Shown: positions 4,764 to 49,119 of the stretch, one piece after another | How positions within the stretch are numbered: position 1 is the first letter of the stretch | Layout of the letters: every line of letters begins with the position of its first letter | Sequence record: PZ465523.1 | Reading direction: 5' to 3' (one strand) | Length of the DNA stretch: 49,119 bases | DNA from: a phage | Translations under genes and position numbers: made by a program | The notes under the pieces: model-generated | Told to the model about the DNA's origin: nothing | The model's database searches: none | What the model saw: the letters and a program-made list of their open reading frames with translations, nothing else

Positions 4764-4837
4764 ACGGCACAAATAGCTAAACAAATAATTAATGAGGTGT
4801 TATAATGCACCTCACACACCAATCAGGAGAAGTTAAG

Positions 4838-5434
4838 ATGCAACTATCACCAGAAACCAACGAAATCCTTCCGGCTCTGTTCAATGCTCGCAACAAATTC
4901 GCGAAAGCAAAGAAGGATGCAAAAAACAATCACCTGAAAAACTCTTACGCAACGCTTGACGCAATGATGGCGGCAGTTAGCCCGGCGCTCACTGATAACG
5001 ATATTATGATCCTGCAATCAATGCTGGACACCAGCACGGAAACGACTTTCCATCTTGAGACGATGCTGATTCACAAATCCGGGCAGTGGGCTAAATTCTT
5101 CATGATGATGCCGATTGCAAAACGAGATCCGCAAGGAGTAGGTTCCGCAATGACGTATGCGCGACGTTACTCATTAGCCGCAGCGCTTGGAATTAGCCAA
5201 AGTGACGACGACGCGCAGCTTGCGGTGAAATCCGTCAAGGACTGGAAAAAAGAACTTGATGCGTGTGAAGATATCGAATCACTGAAAGAGGTATGGGCTA
5301 ACGCTTACCGCCAGACGGACACGGCGAGCAAGTCAATCATCCAGGATCACTACAACGCATTGAAGGCTAAGTTTGAGATCGGTAAAGCTCGCGGCATTCG
5401 CCCGGCGCAACCGGAACAGAAAAAAACAGGTTGA
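4838..5434 (+). CDS. erf: ERF-family single-strand annealing protein
   Basis: GSAMTYARRYSLAAALGI matches the ERF signature; start chosen at ATG after RBS CAGGAGA. Confidence 0.7.
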   Translation: MQLSPETNEILPALFNARNKFAKAKKDAKNNHLKNSYATLDAMMAAVSPALTDNDIMILQSMLDTSTETTFHLETMLIHKSGQWAKFFMMMPIAKRDPQGVGSAMTYARRYSLAAALGISQSDDDAQLAVKSVKDWKKELDACEDIESLKEVWANAYRQTDTASKSIIQDHYNALKAKFEIGKARGIRPAQPEQKKTG

Positions 5435-5533
5435 AGCAACGAGCGCGAAACCTGTACAATCTCAATCAATCACCAACTTTGAATAATCATTTCGGGCGGC
5501 TTCGGTCGCCCATAAATTTTAGGATAGAAAATC

Positions 5534-20005: not shown

Positions 20006-20569
20006 TCAGGATAGCTTTCGCGCTTCATCAATGATAACAGGTTCGAGACGCTCAAGTCGAACGCGGAACGTGTTCATAAATCCTTCGTTATTCTTCAATA
20101 GCTCGAAGGCGTCTGTTGCCTCAATGGCGCTATTTCCCATGTAGGCAACTACGCTCTTTTGCGTCTTGCGTGAGATCGCCACCACGCGGTAAATATTATC
20201 ACTCATACAATGCCTCCTTAACACGGTGCGCAATGCAGGAATTGACGGTGATTGAGTAGTTTGCCACGCCCATAATGCAATATTGCCAAGCTCGGTACGC
20301 ATTGATGGATTGTTAAGCTGGATTATCGTCTCTCCAGTATCTTTATCTACGAAGCGAGACACGCCCAAATGGTCAACCACGCGCGTTACGCGGTTCACGC
20401 ACTCCATTGCATCACTTACGCCGTAATAAGCGCTCAGAGCGGCTCTCACGGCCTTCTCTTGCTTGTTGTAAATCTTGCGCGCTATGTTCTCGATCGCAAT
20501 CTGCTCTTTTTCGTCAGTCTGTATTGCCGTGCTTGCTGAGAAGTCCAAGTCAATGAACTGCTTAAACAT
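20006..20569 (-). CDS. Hypothetical protein (187 aa)
   Basis: Start at ATG 20569 after RBS GAGGAAAG, downstream of box promoter at 20601..20645. Confidence 0.55.
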   Translation of the reverse strand: MFKQFIDLDFSASTAIQTDEKEQIAIENIARKIYNKQEKAVRAALSAYYGVSDAMECVNRVTRVVDHLGVSRFVDKDTGETIIQLNNPSMRTELGNIALWAWQTTQSPSIPALRTVLRRHCMSDNIYRVVAISRKTQKSVVAYMGNSAIEATDAFELLKNNEGFMNTFRVRLERLEPVIIDEARKLS

Positions 20570-20600: not shown

Positions 20601-20645
20601 ACTATACCAGCCATCCCGGATGCGCGTTTAGCAAAAAGTGCTATC
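20601..20645 (-). promoter_or_regulatory. Box-type promoter: GATAGCACTTTTTGCTAAA, 22 nt, TATAGT
   Basis: Hairpin GGGATG...CATCCC overlapping the -10. Confidence 0.55.
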
Positions 20646-20646
20646 C

Positions 20647-20751
20647 TCAGCGACCAACTGCATCCATAATGATTAAGAACATGATCGCGACCAGGCATCC
20701 TGACAGAGAGAAAAGCACCGATCCAATTGCATAATTAAAAAACTTTGCCAT
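20647..20751 (-). CDS. Small membrane peptide (34 aa)
   Basis: MAKFFNYAIGSVLFSLSGCLVAIMFLIIMDAVGR; RBS GAGGG; stop abuts box. Confidence 0.45.
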   Translation of the reverse strand: MAKFFNYAIGSVLFSLSGCLVAIMFLIIMDAVGR

Positions 20752-20756
20752 AATTA

Positions 20757-20984
20757 CCCTCTGAAACTATCAATTGTGTCGTTGATGTATTTCACTTGAG
20801 CCTCTACGTCAGACGTTGCGATATACTGGAATGTATCGTAATCATCCCACAAGTCGACAAGCTCAACCTTTGTATGATGCTATTTTAAGCCGCCCATGTG
20901 ACCGTAATGTGTGCGGTAGACGATGAATCCCTCATCATTGGCGCGCTGAATTGCTTTCTTTAATCCGGGGTGTTTAATTGCCAC
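20757..20984 (-). pseudogene. Reading frame interrupted by a single in-frame TAG; possible pseudogene or readthrough gene
   Basis: GTG start, 34 codons, TAG at 20880..20882, then 41 more in-frame codons to TAA at 20754..20756. Confidence 0.3.
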
Positions 20985-21015
20985 TTGGTCATTTCTCTGA
21001 TTGGTTGATGTTTTA

Positions 21016-21060
21016 AATATACCCCGATCACCTTCGGGGCGTTTAGCAATTCGTGCTATT
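21016..21060 (-). promoter_or_regulatory. Box-type promoter: AATAGCACGAATTGCTAAA, 22 nt, TATATT
   Basis: Hairpin CCCCGA-aggtga-TCGGGG in spacer. Confidence 0.55.
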
Positions 21061-22242: not shown

Positions 22243-22427
22243 TCCAATAGTTGCTCATTATTCCATCAATAGTGGAATAGTTGGAATAATTTTGATTGTG
22301 ATTGATTGCGAATGATTAAACGTGATTATTGCATTGTGTGCAACAGTTGGTTGATTTGTTGATGAGAATGCAATGATTGTGAGAGGGAGGATTTAGTGTT
22401 ACCCGGTTCGCTTGGTAGTCACCTCCA

Positions 22428-22447
22428 TTTTTAGCAAAAAGTGCTAT
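22428..22447 (-). promoter_or_regulatory. Box GATAGCACTTTTTGCTAAAA without a matching -10 at the usual spacing
   Basis: Distal-most box of the leftward arm, followed by hairpin GGAGG...CCTCC. Confidence 0.45.
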
Positions 22448-22856
22448 CCGTCTATATCTTCGTTGTAATTGTCGTAATAGTTGTATACTATCGGGGGTGT
22501 TACAAAATGGCCCCGAAGGGATGGGCCTATATATACTAAAATATCTATATATAATAATAAGATAGATAATATATATATATTTATTTATTATATTATATAT
22601 TGGTATGTAATCGGCGTAATAGGTGCAACCGCATTTTTGGAAGGTGGCATATATTTCAGGGTGCATAGTATAAAAAACATACTATTCCGCGCGTCGAAAT
22701 GGATGTGTGTGCTTTTATAGAAAAAGTCGGTTGCATCGGTTGCACTGGTTACAAAAATAAAAAATGCAGCTATAGACATTGACGCGCCTAGCCAGGTTGC
22801 TGTAACATGTTTTTCGGGGCGGCAAGTTACGCCCGTAGACAACGAGGTATAGACAA

Positions 22857-26530: not shown

Positions 26531-26890
26531 ATGAAACACTTAATTTGCATTGAAACGCCTAACGATGAATACACTCTTCACGGTATCGGAATGTTCAAAG
26601 GTCACTACATGACAGCAAGCATTCATGATGCGCGACTATGCGATGGCGATCTGATGATTATATCAAAAGAAGTAAATCCGTACATTATGCAGAATCTTGG
26701 CAATAACGAATATATGGCATACGGCTGCAACGCCGTGTACAAGCATATCAAGATCCGCAAGCGTGTCGTGCGTGCATTCAAGAAGATTGCAATGAAATAC
26801 TGGAAGATGAGCAAGAAGGACGCCGGACGCTGGCGCGCAATGTTGCTGACTCGTACTTCTATCGTAACGGTGAGTCCCGCTACTTCCTGA
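26531..26890 (+). CDS. Hypothetical protein; C-terminal region may continue in another frame
   Basis: RBS CGAGGAA; alternative frame 26707..26976 encodes a more protein-like tail ending SCW. Confidence 0.45.
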   Translation: MKHLICIETPNDEYTLHGIGMFKGHYMTASIHDARLCDGDLMIISKEVNPYIMQNLGNNEYMAYGCNAVYKHIKIRKRVVRAFKKIAMKYWKMSKKDAGRWRAMLLTRTSIVTVSPATS

Positions 26891-26974
26891 TCGATGAAAT
26901 TATGGAAAGCTACGGCGGCGACTTCAGCCAGTGTAGCTTTGACGATTGGGCTGATTATGAGATCAGTTGCTGGT

Positions 26975-34566: not shown

Positions 34567-35049
34567 GTGAATTTTAATGATTTGTTTTACCATGAAGGAA
34601 AGGATCTCATATGAAAGGTTAGCACATCAAGAAGGGTAAAGGTTGGTGATGTAGCAGGATGGAAGGATGAGCTAGGGTATGTTTATGTAAGAGTTAACGG
34701 TAAGCTAATTCCTGCTCATAGGATAATATGGGAGATGCACTACGGAAAAATTCCAGAAGGTATGGAGATAGACCACATAAATCATATAACCGACGATAAC
34801 AGGATTGAAAACTTAAGGCTGGTAACGAGGAAAGATAACTGCAAAAACGTATCCATGAGCAAATCTAACAAGAGCGGAGTGGTTGGAGTTAGCTGGTGCA
34901 AAAGGACTTGCAAATGGTTTGCATCAATTAGAGTTGATAGAAAGGAAAAGTTTTTGGGTAGATATGATAAAATTGAGGATGCAGCAGCAGCAAGAAAGGC
35001 GGCTGAGTTAAAATACAATTTTCACAAAAATCACGGGAGTAAAAAATGA
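34567..35049 (+). pseudogene. HNH homing endonuclease with AP2-like domain, interrupted by in-frame TGA at 34612..34614
   Basis: Strong RBS AAGGAGGTG + GTG 34567; TGA at codon 16; downstream EIDHINHITDDNRIENLRL...DNCKN and AP2-like WCKRTCKWFASIRVDRK. Confidence 0.55.
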
Positions 35050-46789: not shown

Positions 46790-47385
46790 ATGATGTAAAA
46801 GTAATCAAATTATCCGGTTCGCTTGGTAGGCGCTTCGGGGTCTTTCACCGCTTTGCTGTTGACTCTTACCCGGAAGCCATTCGTGCACTATCCAGTCAGG
46901 TAGATGGATTTAAAGAATACATGCAGAGCGAGGTGGGATCACGTAGCAAGTTTGCAATATTTGTAGATGGCGTTAACGTTGGACACCATGAAGAGGAAAA
47001 ATTCAAGTGCGCCAAAGAGATAAGGATTGTCCCGATCCCGACTGGTTCTAAGTCCGGCGGTCTATTCCAGGTTGTATTGGGTGCGGCAATAATGGTTGCG
47101 GCATTCTATACTGGCGGCGCATCTCTGGCGTTAATGGGCGCAATGTCCTCATCACTGTTTATGATGGGCGGCGCTATGGTGCTGGGAGGCGTGATGCAGA
47201 TGATTTCACCGCAGCCCGGAGGGGCAAACTTTGAAGTTCAATCAAGCAAGAATAAACCTTCGTACGCGTTCGGTGGTGCTGTCAATACGACTGCGGCGGG
47301 ATACCCTCTCCCGGTCCCGTATGGATATCGCGCCGGAGGTGGCGCAACTTTCTCAGCAGGTTCTTATGCTGAGGATATGAGTTAA
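46786..47385 (+). CDS. Tail assembly protein (lambda I-like)
   Basis: Gly/Ala/Met-rich hydrophobic C-terminal half. Confidence 0.65.
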   Translation: MNDVKVIKLSGSLGRRFGVFHRFAVDSYPEAIRALSSQVDGFKEYMQSEVGSRSKFAIFVDGVNVGHHEEEKFKCAKEIRIVPIPTGSKSGGLFQVVLGAAIMVAAFYTGGASLALMGAMSSSLFMMGGAMVLGGVMQMISPQPGGANFEVQSSKNKPSYAFGGAVNTTAAGYPLPVPYGYRAGGGATFSAGSYAEDMS

Positions 47386-47462: not shown

Positions 47463-49119
47463 ATGATTCAAAAAGTGATAAGCGGATCGAAAGGCGGTTC
47501 ATCTAAGCCGCATAAGCCAGTTGAGATGGAAGATAATCTAATCTCAATCAACAAAATCAAGATCCTGTTAGCTGTGTCTGATGGCGAGATTGACGAAACA
47601 TTCAGCCTAAAGCAGTTGATGTTTAACTCAGTCCCTGTGCAAAACGAGGATGGCTCATTTAACTTCGAGGGAGTAAATGCAGAGTTTAGGCCGGGGACGC
47701 AGACTCAGGAATATATCAAGGGGATGGAAGATAGCTCTAGTGAGGTAACTGTAAGCCGTGAGGTTACTACAGATAACCCATACACGATCTCAGTAACCAA
47801 CAAAACGCTTTCGGCAATCCGTATCAAAATGTTTATGCCTCGCGGCGTACGAATTGAAAGCAACGGTGATAAAAACGGCGTAAGAGTTGAGTATGAGGTG
47901 CAACAAGCTGTTGATGGCGGCTCGTTTGAGACGGTGCTCACCGATGTAATCGAAGGCAAAACAATGTCAGGTTATGATCGAAGCAGACGCATAAACCTTC
48001 CGAGCTTTAACAATCAGGTGATATTCAGAGTCGTTCGCAAAACTCCAGACTCTAACGATTCGAACGTGGTCGATGCTATTCAAGTGAAAAGCTACGCCGA
48101 GGTGATTGATGCAAAATTCCGTTACCCTCTGACTGGTCTTCTTTTCGTCGAGTTCGATTCGAAGATGTTCCCAAATCAGTTACCTACGATCTCAATTCGT
48201 AAGCGCTGGAAGATTGTAAACGTTCCGTCAAACTATGATCCAGAATCACGAACTTATAACGGAAATTGGGATGGAACTTTTAAGAAGGCGTGGACTAATA
48301 ATCCGGCTTGGGTGCTTTATGACCTGATGATTAATCAGCGTTATGGGCTGGATCAGAAAGAGCTTGGAATATCTGTCGATAAATGGGCGCTATATGAGGC
48401 GGCGCAATATTGCGACCAGATGGTTCCTGACGGAAAAGGCGGTACTGAGCCTCGCTACCTTTGCGACGTGATAATTCAGTCACAGACTGATGCGTACAAG
48501 GTGATTCGAGATATTTGCTCAATCTTCCGTGGAATGAGCTTTTGGAATGGTGAAAGCATTTCGGTAATCATCGACAGGCCGCGTGAACCTGCGTACATCT
48601 TCACTAACGACAACGTTGTTAACGGTGACTTCTCCTATACTTTCGCAAGCGAGAAAAGTATGTACACGACGTGCAACGTGATGTTTGATGATGAACAAAA
48701 CATGTATCAGCAGGACGTTGAGCCAGTATTCGATCGAGAAGCCACTCTACGGTTCGGGAATAACGTAACAAGCATTACAGCGATCGGGTGCACACGTCGA
48801 AGTGAAGCTAACCGTCGCGGACGATGGATTCTGAAAACAAACCTTCGCAGCACTACGGTAAACTTTGCTACCGGGCTTGAGGGTATGATTCCGACAATTG
48901 GAGATGTTGTAGCGATAGCTGATAACTTCTGGTCAAGTAACTTGACTATGAACCTGTCAGGGCGTTTGCTCGAAGTGTCTGGAAGTCAGATTTTCCTGCC
49001 GTTCCGCGTTGATGCTCGCGCAGGTGACTTTATTATCGTAAATAAGCCCGATGGCAAGCCCGCGAAGCGCACAATCTCAAGTGTTAGTGCGGATGGTAAG
49101 ACTATAGAGGTTAACATCG
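47463..49119 (+). CDS. Tail tip / host specificity protein (lambda J-like), N-terminal part; runs off window end and continues at 1..1884
   Basis: No stop before window end; frame continuous with 1..1884 through the repeat; about 1139 aa in total. Confidence 0.8.
   Translation, partial: MIQKVISGSKGGSSKPHKPVEMEDNLISINKIKILLAVSDGEIDETFSLKQLMFNSVPVQNEDGSFNFEGVNAEFRPGTQTQEYIKGMEDSSSEVTVSREVTTDNPYTISVTNKTLSAIRIKMFMPRGVRIESNGDKNGVRVEYEVQQAVDGGSFETVLTDVIEGKTMSGYDRSRRINLPSFNNQVIFRVVRKTPDSNDSNVVDAIQVKSYAEVIDAKFRYPLTGLLFVEFDSKMFPNQLPTISIRKRWKIVNVPSNYDPESRTYNGNWDGTFKKAWTNNPAWVLYDLMINQRYGLDQKELGISVDKWALYEAAQYCDQMVPDGKGGTEPRYLCDVIIQSQTDAYKVIRDICSIFRGMSFWNGESISVIIDRPREPAYIFTNDNVVNGDFSYTFASEKSMYTTCNVMFDDEQNMYQQDVEPVFDREATLRFGNNVTSITAIGCTRRSEANRRGRWILKTNLRSTTVNFATGLEGMIPTIGDVVAIADNFWSSNLTMNLSGRLLEVSGSQIFLPFRVDARAGDFIIVNKPDGKPAKRTISSVSADGKTIEVNI
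48999..49119. repeat. Terminal direct repeat, copy 2; identical to 1..121
   Basis: Exact identity read directly. Confidence 0.9.

Follow-up and report, generated by a model that had tools for sequence, protein, structure and literature searches.

A single in-frame amber codon divides a small accessory gene of a T1-like phage: probably a very young null allele

A small leftward gene in a T1-like siphovirus (Drexlerviridae, Tunavirus) is interrupted by a single in-frame TAG. The window analyzed here is the complete genome of sequence record PZ465523.1, taken over its entire length of 49,119 nucleotides. With a probability of roughly 0.7, the interrupted frame is a null allele, or very young pseudogene, of a gene that is small, non-essential, and part of the phage's leftward accessory block.

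The ancestral gene would have encoded a 76-amino acid, single-domain protein having an alpha-beta-beta-beta-alpha fold (the family phrog_13365 / VOG8624). One G-to-T transversion is proposed to have converted its codon 35 from GAG, which encodes Glu, to TAG. Where the host has no suppressor, a ribosome that begins at the GTG would halt after 34 residues; the fragment thereby released, helix 1 and strand 1, would be unable to form the domain. Initiation would already have been weak, with the GGAG core of the Shine-Dalgarno sequence lost and with GTG as the start codon. The 41 codons downstream of the TAG would be untranslated remnants, too recent to have decayed. The phage would tolerate this loss because the gene is, presumably, dispensable. 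Three parts of this reading are inferred: the truncated product has no function, the T is a true mutation rather than an error in the consensus, and expression of the gene is early.

Reading the minus strand bears out the frame as it was first described: GTG, 34 codons, TAG, 41 further in-frame codons, and TAA. The coordinates of its parts, and those of the other features that enter the argument, are collected in Table 1. The N-terminal sense stretch of 34 codons, opened by the GTG at 20984-20982, is VAIKHPGLKKAIQRANDEGFIVYRTHYGHMGGLK. The protein sequence of this part is the same as that of residues 2-34 of the intact homologues. The 41 sense codons that lie between TAG and TAA are HHTKVELVDLWDDYDTFQYIATSDVEAQVKYINDTIDSFRG. 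This C-terminal part carries between one and four non-synonymous nucleotide differences in comparison with each relative, and no change that is unique to the window.

Table 1. Features of the broken gene, its surroundings, and other lesions in the window (positions are those of the whole stretch).
Feature	Position	Strand	Remark
Conserved box TTGCTAAACG-N16-GGTATAnT	21016..21049	-	CCCCGA/TCGGGG hairpin; possible promoter or terminator-promoter
Degraded initiation region	20985..20998	-	Shine-Dalgarno AGGAG changed to AGAGA; changed base beside start codon
N-terminal 34 codons of broken 76-codon gene	20883..20984	-	GTG start at 20984-20982
In-frame TAG, codon 35	20880..20882	-	One G-to-T change from GAG (Glu); altered base 20882
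C-terminal 41 codons, in frame, undecayed	20757..20879	-	Beyond reach of normal translation
Ancestral TAA stop of 76-codon gene	20754..20756	-	Position common to all relatives (TAA or TGA)
Downstream gene, 34-aa predicted membrane peptide	20647..20751	-	Own GAGGG Shine-Dalgarno
123-aa gene (phrog_11577), G4 to G3 frameshift	20202-20569, lesion 20270-20272	-	GGGG in all relatives
Erf-like single-strand annealing recombinase, A6 to A7	4805-5483, lesion ~5420	+	A6 in three relatives
148-aa hypothetical gene, G3 to G2 frameshift	26531-26973, lesion ~26832	+	Frameshift after codon 101
HNH endonuclease gene, TGA at codon 17	34567-35043, stop 34612-34614	+	Trp or Tyr in paralogues
TAG in AT-rich low-complexity stretch	22316-22850, TAG 22718-22720	+	Between divergent gene blocks

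The closing TAA (20756-20754) sits between the GAGGG Shine-Dalgarno sequence and the ATG (20751) of the next small ORF. That ORF, which has equivalent coding sequences annotated in SA12KD and ULIM2, encodes the predicted 34-aa membrane peptide. Its ribosome-binding site pairs with the anti-Shine-Dalgarno sequence at -6.3 kcal/mol, and its translation is therefore probably independent of the translation of the broken gene. Together with the second copy of a box described below, this ORF forms a small insert between the 76-aa gene and a 123-aa gene. Among the relatives examined, the insert is found only in SA12KD, ECO104 4-5-2, and ULIM2; in the others, another gene, mostly the 123-aa gene, comes immediately after the 76-aa gene.

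Three interpretations had been offered for the frame: that it is a pseudogene, that it is a gene expressed by amber read-through, or that it is two tiny ORFs. Comparison with relatives supports the first and speaks against the second and third. As the original prediction had proposed, homologs were sought using the joined translation; the search recovers uninterrupted 76-aa homologues that span the TAG, and thereby identifies the locus as one gene split by a stop. The matches are to annotated 76-aa coding sequences in 17 phage records, cover the full length, and have 92-96% identity. The joined translation also matches phrog_13365 (hmmscan, E=1.1e-35, residues 3-76), the same family that is labelled VOG8624 (pVOG) in the notes of the relatives' records. 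Named members of this family are pSf-2 gp75, phi2457T gp77, SH6 gp78, and SA12KD_53.

In all 12 of the distinct relatives that were fetched, the gene is a single, uninterrupted coding sequence of 231 nt (76 aa). Codon 35 is GAG in 11 of these and GAT in the remaining one, where the window has TAG. The family itself is very small, with three clusters among 5.8 billion proteins. A family search of 1.8 billion representatives gave five matches, one of which (P0004) is an artefact of a low-complexity repeat. A distant homologue, P0005, lies on a contig of 1.6 kb, where its neighbours are uninformative. No Pfam domain was found in the 76-aa protein.

The window locus shares with the members of phrog_13365 / VOG8624 a genomic position, which in 12 relatives is after the box and a 111-aa gene, and before the 123-aa gene. 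It differs from the family in its degraded Shine-Dalgarno sequence, in its GTG start, and in the TAG at codon 35, which breaks the uninterrupted, whole-domain frame that is a trait of phrog_13365 members. Judged by its sequence, the locus is a disrupted allele of this family and not a functional member of it.

The predicted structure indicates what the TAG would do to the protein. An AlphaFold model of an intact homologue (pLDDT 80) has a helix at residues 6-17, strands at 20-27, 37-44, and 51-57, and a second helix at 60-75. In the model, the TAG falls within the loop that joins the first and second strands of one compact alpha-beta-beta-beta-alpha domain. The 34 N-terminal codons span only helix 1 and strand 1 of that domain.

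One might, of course, regard the two halves as independent tiny genes, the first encoding a 34-aa peptide and the second a separately initiated peptide of 32-41 aa, with both products functional. Both halves are open, and the early regions of phages are rich in tiny proteins, of which the adjoining 34-aa membrane peptide is an example. In all of the homologues, however, the 76 aa make up one protein, for which one domain is predicted. None of them equals the N-terminal half alone, and the sequences from two phages that depart from the full-length pattern (P0003 and vB_SsoS_008, described below) are disrupted variants rather than representatives of a half-gene family. Further, the only in-frame restarts that follow the TAG are a TTG at codon 45 (anti-Shine-Dalgarno pairing of -3.6 kcal/mol) and a GTG at codon 64; Shine-Dalgarno pairing is poor at each. 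A pair of functional genes at this locus is accordingly given the very lowest credence.

Programmed read-through is a second way in which a frame with an internal stop might be used intact. It occurs in phages; the A1 read-through protein of Qbeta is an example. Genes of the Qbeta A1 type and the window locus are alike in that the frame stays open for a long stretch beyond an in-frame stop. In the programmed cases, however, the stop is conserved, with a complete protein ahead of it and an extension domain behind it. At this locus, none of the 12 relatives has a stop at codon 35, and the model places the stop not at the end of a complete protein, but in the middle of a small domain that is thereby halved. 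Because only one genome has the stop, and because it lies in mid-domain, programmed read-through was rejected. No nucleotide unique to the window was found in or after the gene other than the T itself, which means that no dedicated context for read-through has evolved.

Nor has TAG been reassigned in this genome. Approximately six conserved genes in the window are terminated by TAG, and this excludes reassignment. The many in-frame TAGs that reassignment implies are likewise missing: a tblastn comparison in which every annotated protein from three whole relatives was aligned to the window gave only the TAG under study, a TGA in an HNH gene, and a TAG in a doubtful, low-complexity ORF. This leaves a single credible in-frame TAG genome-wide, plus the one in the doubtful ORF.

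The HNH stop had been noted from the start as a second unusual in-frame stop. It does exist, but it is TGA, not TAG, and therefore no amber mechanism shared by the two is indicated. A mechanism specific for amber codons was rejected on this ground and on two others. First, TAG is the only stop codon that can be reached from GAG in one step, and that the stop is amber is therefore uninformative. Second, the TAG at 22718 lies in the doubtful ORF.

More subtle is the possibility that the gene is kept working by its host, either an amber-suppressor strain (of the supE or supF type) or one in which UAG is naturally leaky. The supE44 allele is, of course, present in many laboratory strains of E. coli K-12. 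Codon 35 lies in a surface loop in the model and varies between E, D, R, and G in distant homologues; any residue inserted at this site, Gln or Tyr included, would probably yield a working protein, and the defect would then go unseen on a suppressor host. The undecayed C-terminal half is also to be expected if the gene is still read through.

However, the stop is found in one genome only, and so is no conserved regulatory device, and the nucleotides that surround it are the same as in the relatives. ARAGORN found no tRNA gene in the window, and hence the phage supplies no suppressor tRNA. The weak Shine-Dalgarno sequence and the GTG start point to loss of expression rather than to its upkeep. 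Last, the genome's second nonsense lesion is a TGA and would be beyond rescue by an amber suppressor. Rescue by suppression or by leaky read-through is, on balance, quite improbable.

The age of the stop can be approached by asking which bases in the gene are peculiar to the window. A column-wise comparison of the gene with its relatives leaves only one base in its 231 nt that is unique to the window, the T at 20882. Every other difference is also seen in at least one relative, and these differences are mostly synonymous. This is not for want of divergence, as 6-16% of positions are different between the window gene and any one relative. In its N-terminal half, it shows 4-14 synonymous differences and no non-synonymous difference from 9 of the 12 relatives.

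Among pairs of intact relatives, 1379 synonymous differences are counted versus 225 non-synonymous, for a dN/dS of approximately 0.05 by crude count. This, in turn, means that the family has been under purifying selection and that the stop is recent. To judge from these comparisons, the nonsense change is the latest event in the gene, with no decay behind the stop since it arose. The undecayed C-terminal half by itself, however, is equally to be expected from a recent mutation, from an error, or from continued use.

The TAG allele was sought elsewhere. It was not found in IMG/VR (using both TAG-specific and any-codon patterns), in metagenome contigs, or in GTDB genomes. A megablast search of complete genomes and plasmids of E. 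coli, combined with pattern scans, returned only four isolates that were already known. Exact-protein look-ups in public assemblies gave no match for the 34-aa fragment, for the 111-aa protein, for the methylase, or for a 187-aa fusion that is described below.

A stop that is found only once may, of course, be an error of sequencing or assembly, in which case the true codon 35 would be GAG and the gene would be intact. The TAG results from a single base, is unique among known copies, and has no match in the public sequences searched; the remainder of the gene shows no decay. Further, the contig carries three gene-breaking differences in homopolymer length and a raw overlap of 121 nt at its ends, and so is unpolished and uncurated.

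The overlap is itself informative about the assembly. Positions 1-121 and 48999-49119 of the window match each other exactly; this 121-nt repeat lies inside the gene for a large tail-tip (J-like) protein. The repeat is an untrimmed overlap from a circular assembly, and the true length of the genome is ~48,998 bp. The assembly is therefore complete and circular, and was opened within the tail-tip gene. An overlap of exactly 121 nt suggests that accurate short reads were assembled by a large-k de Bruijn method. No record identical to the window was found in the sequence collection searched; Eco_BIFF, phiL, Shfl1, and Sfin-3 match it with 91-95% identity across most of its length.

Against an error stands the fact that the change at 20882 is a substitution that lies outside any homopolymer; consensus substitutions would be rare in the kind of large-k, short-read assembly that the overlap suggests. 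The ribosome-binding site of the same gene carries four further unique changes, which are unlikely as random errors. Moreover, all of the lesions in the genome avoid the genes for structure, packaging, lysis, and core replication, which make up ~60% of it. A rough estimate gives p ~0.04 for finding four of five lesions within hypothetical or HNH genes, a distribution that fits mutations that have been filtered by selection. An error at codon 35 is unlikely, although it is the most probable of the rival readings.

The other lesions, of which the three homopolymer frameshifts had escaped the original prediction, deserve individual description. One lies in the same operon as the TAG, in the next-but-one gene, ~600 nt downstream. 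Here, the loss of one G shifts the 123-aa gene at approximately codon 100 into the frame of an overlapping 66-aa gene (phrog_6503), giving a fused ORF of 187 aa at 20006-20569. The extra A in the gene for the Erf-like recombinase shifts the frame of only the last ~20 residues, the C-terminal tail. In the 148-aa gene, the window has GG where Eco_BIFF and phiL have GGG, and alignment with Sfin-3 places the gap ~5 nt upstream.

The HNH gene has a GTG start behind a strong AAGGAGG Shine-Dalgarno sequence, and ~143 in-frame codons, which include the HNH motif, follow its TGA; the comparison here is with paralogues at only 38-42% identity. As for the TAG at 22718, phiL annotates an ORF of 119 aa in the stretch equivalent to 22316-22850, 94% identical and with Tyr where the window has TAG. 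The other two whole relatives have no gene annotated in that stretch beyond the methylase. Rather than the site of a second amber pseudogene, the stretch is probably non-coding and has a control role. A frameshift in a tail-assembly gene at 47296 was considered and dismissed, being a peculiarity of Sfin-3 and not of the window. Together, the three homopolymer frameshifts, the TGA in the HNH gene, and the TAG studied here flag this assembly for a quality check at the level of the reads.

The signals for initiation have changed as well. Four bases in the initiation region, 20985 and 20994-20996, are unique to the window and fall within 12 nt; the background around the locus is 25 unique bases in 3109 nt. 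Nowhere else in the surrounding 3.3 kb do unique changes lie so densely. The 78 nt upstream of the gene contain six unique bases, versus one in the body of the gene (Fisher p=0.001). The AGGAG is invariant in the relatives. The energy of the duplex with the anti-Shine-Dalgarno sequence is -2.9 kcal/mol in the window versus -7.4 in every relative. The start codon is GTG in the window and in DELF2 only; the others have ATG.

Further upstream, the original prediction had placed a "box promoter." The box itself stands: the motif TTGCTAAACG-N16-GGTATAnT occurs in two copies in the window, where none is expected by chance, and DNA alignments show that the copy at 21016-21049 is also conserved in relatives. 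The second copy (20601-20634, minus strand) lies ahead of the next leftward gene block. The promoter label fares less well. The hexamers within the box, TTGCTA and TATATT (TATAnT), are 22 nt apart, which is outside the canonical sigma-70 spacing of 16-18 nt, and a scan with the sigma-70 consensus called no promoter at the box. The 6-bp GC hairpin in the first copy is annotated in SA12KD as a terminator. A G-to-T change at 21017, unique to the window, has altered TATAGT to TATATT within this copy. The box as a promoter is, at present, a hypothesis.

A null allele would be more readily understood if the gene were seen to be lost elsewhere. Approximately 18 of the 78 records that share the flanking DNA have the gene. 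Those without it include the closest overall relatives of the window, Eco_BIFF and phiL, where the 111-aa gene is followed directly by the 123-aa gene. In Shigella phage vB_SsoS_008, the gene has suffered multiple internal deletions and is unannotated (its remnant is at 1501-1685 of L004). In a metagenomic phage (ONAT22-1_SAMEA6814399_METAG-scaffold_665, ENA assembly ERZ28615646), the 5' half of the gene has been replaced, leaving a chimera of 53 aa (protein P0003).

Both of these phages, like the window, carry an inactivated or remodelled version of this accessory gene. The lesions differ: deletions or a 5' replacement in the two phages, versus a single point nonsense change in the window that leaves the rest of the frame intact. 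As far as the available genomes indicate, the gene is repeatedly lost in T1-like phages, and two other phages have disrupted it independently. This distribution suggests that the gene is dispensable. In DELF2, the cytosine methylase is annotated as two coding sequences (274-978 of L012). Erosion of the leftward accessory region appears to be common in the group, with DELF2 and vB_SsoS_008 as examples.

What the intact protein does may be approached through its predicted fold. Its top match among PDB folds is T7 Gp1.2 (7u66 chain G), with a TM score of 0.67 over 71 columns, a Foldseek probability of 1.0, and E=4.5e-3; generic dsRBD-like alpha-beta-beta-beta-alpha folds score nearly as well in the same list. 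Both are small phage proteins (76 aa here, 85 aa for Gp1.2), and the alpha/beta topology predicted for the first is similar to that solved for the second. The T7 record annotates Gp1.2 as an inhibitor of dGTPase and a target of F exclusion. Further, T7 Gp1.2, a known early protein, is dispensable on ordinary hosts, as the 76-aa gene would be here.

Homology between the two did not emerge from direct comparison, where hhalign gave a probability of 0.2% and BLASTP was not significant. A profile search of the PDB with the 76-aa family did not retrieve Gp1.2. In a viral structure library, the matches are only to uncharacterised proteins of the Drexlerviridae, with Gp1.2 absent. Support from gene order was also considered, as one relative labels the upstream neighbour "gp1.05," and was rejected, as only T1-like phages carry this neighbour. 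As far as models can say, the likeness to Gp1.2 is one of resemblance only, not of membership.

By analogy with T7 Gp1.2, which T7 can spare on ordinary hosts but which exposes it to exclusion by the F plasmid, the loss of the gene might be thought adaptive, with the 76-aa protein being toxic in the isolation host or sensed by one of its defence systems. Successive hits would then have silenced the gene: destruction of the Shine-Dalgarno sequence, replacement of ATG by GTG, and finally the amber codon. This is conceivable, but the chance assigned to it is slim.

On the preferred reading, that of a young null allele of a dispensable gene, annotation should treat this locus as one pseudogene, disrupted by an internal stop and homologous to the 76-aa protein of Tunavirus, and not as two tiny ORFs or a recoding event. 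For the biology of these phages, it would be a further case of a small T1-like gene that is dispensable and repeatedly lost. Only if the loss were proved adaptive would it indicate a function in host interaction for this uncharacterised family; the family would then be a candidate trigger of defence, or a candidate counter-defence protein, of T1-like phages.
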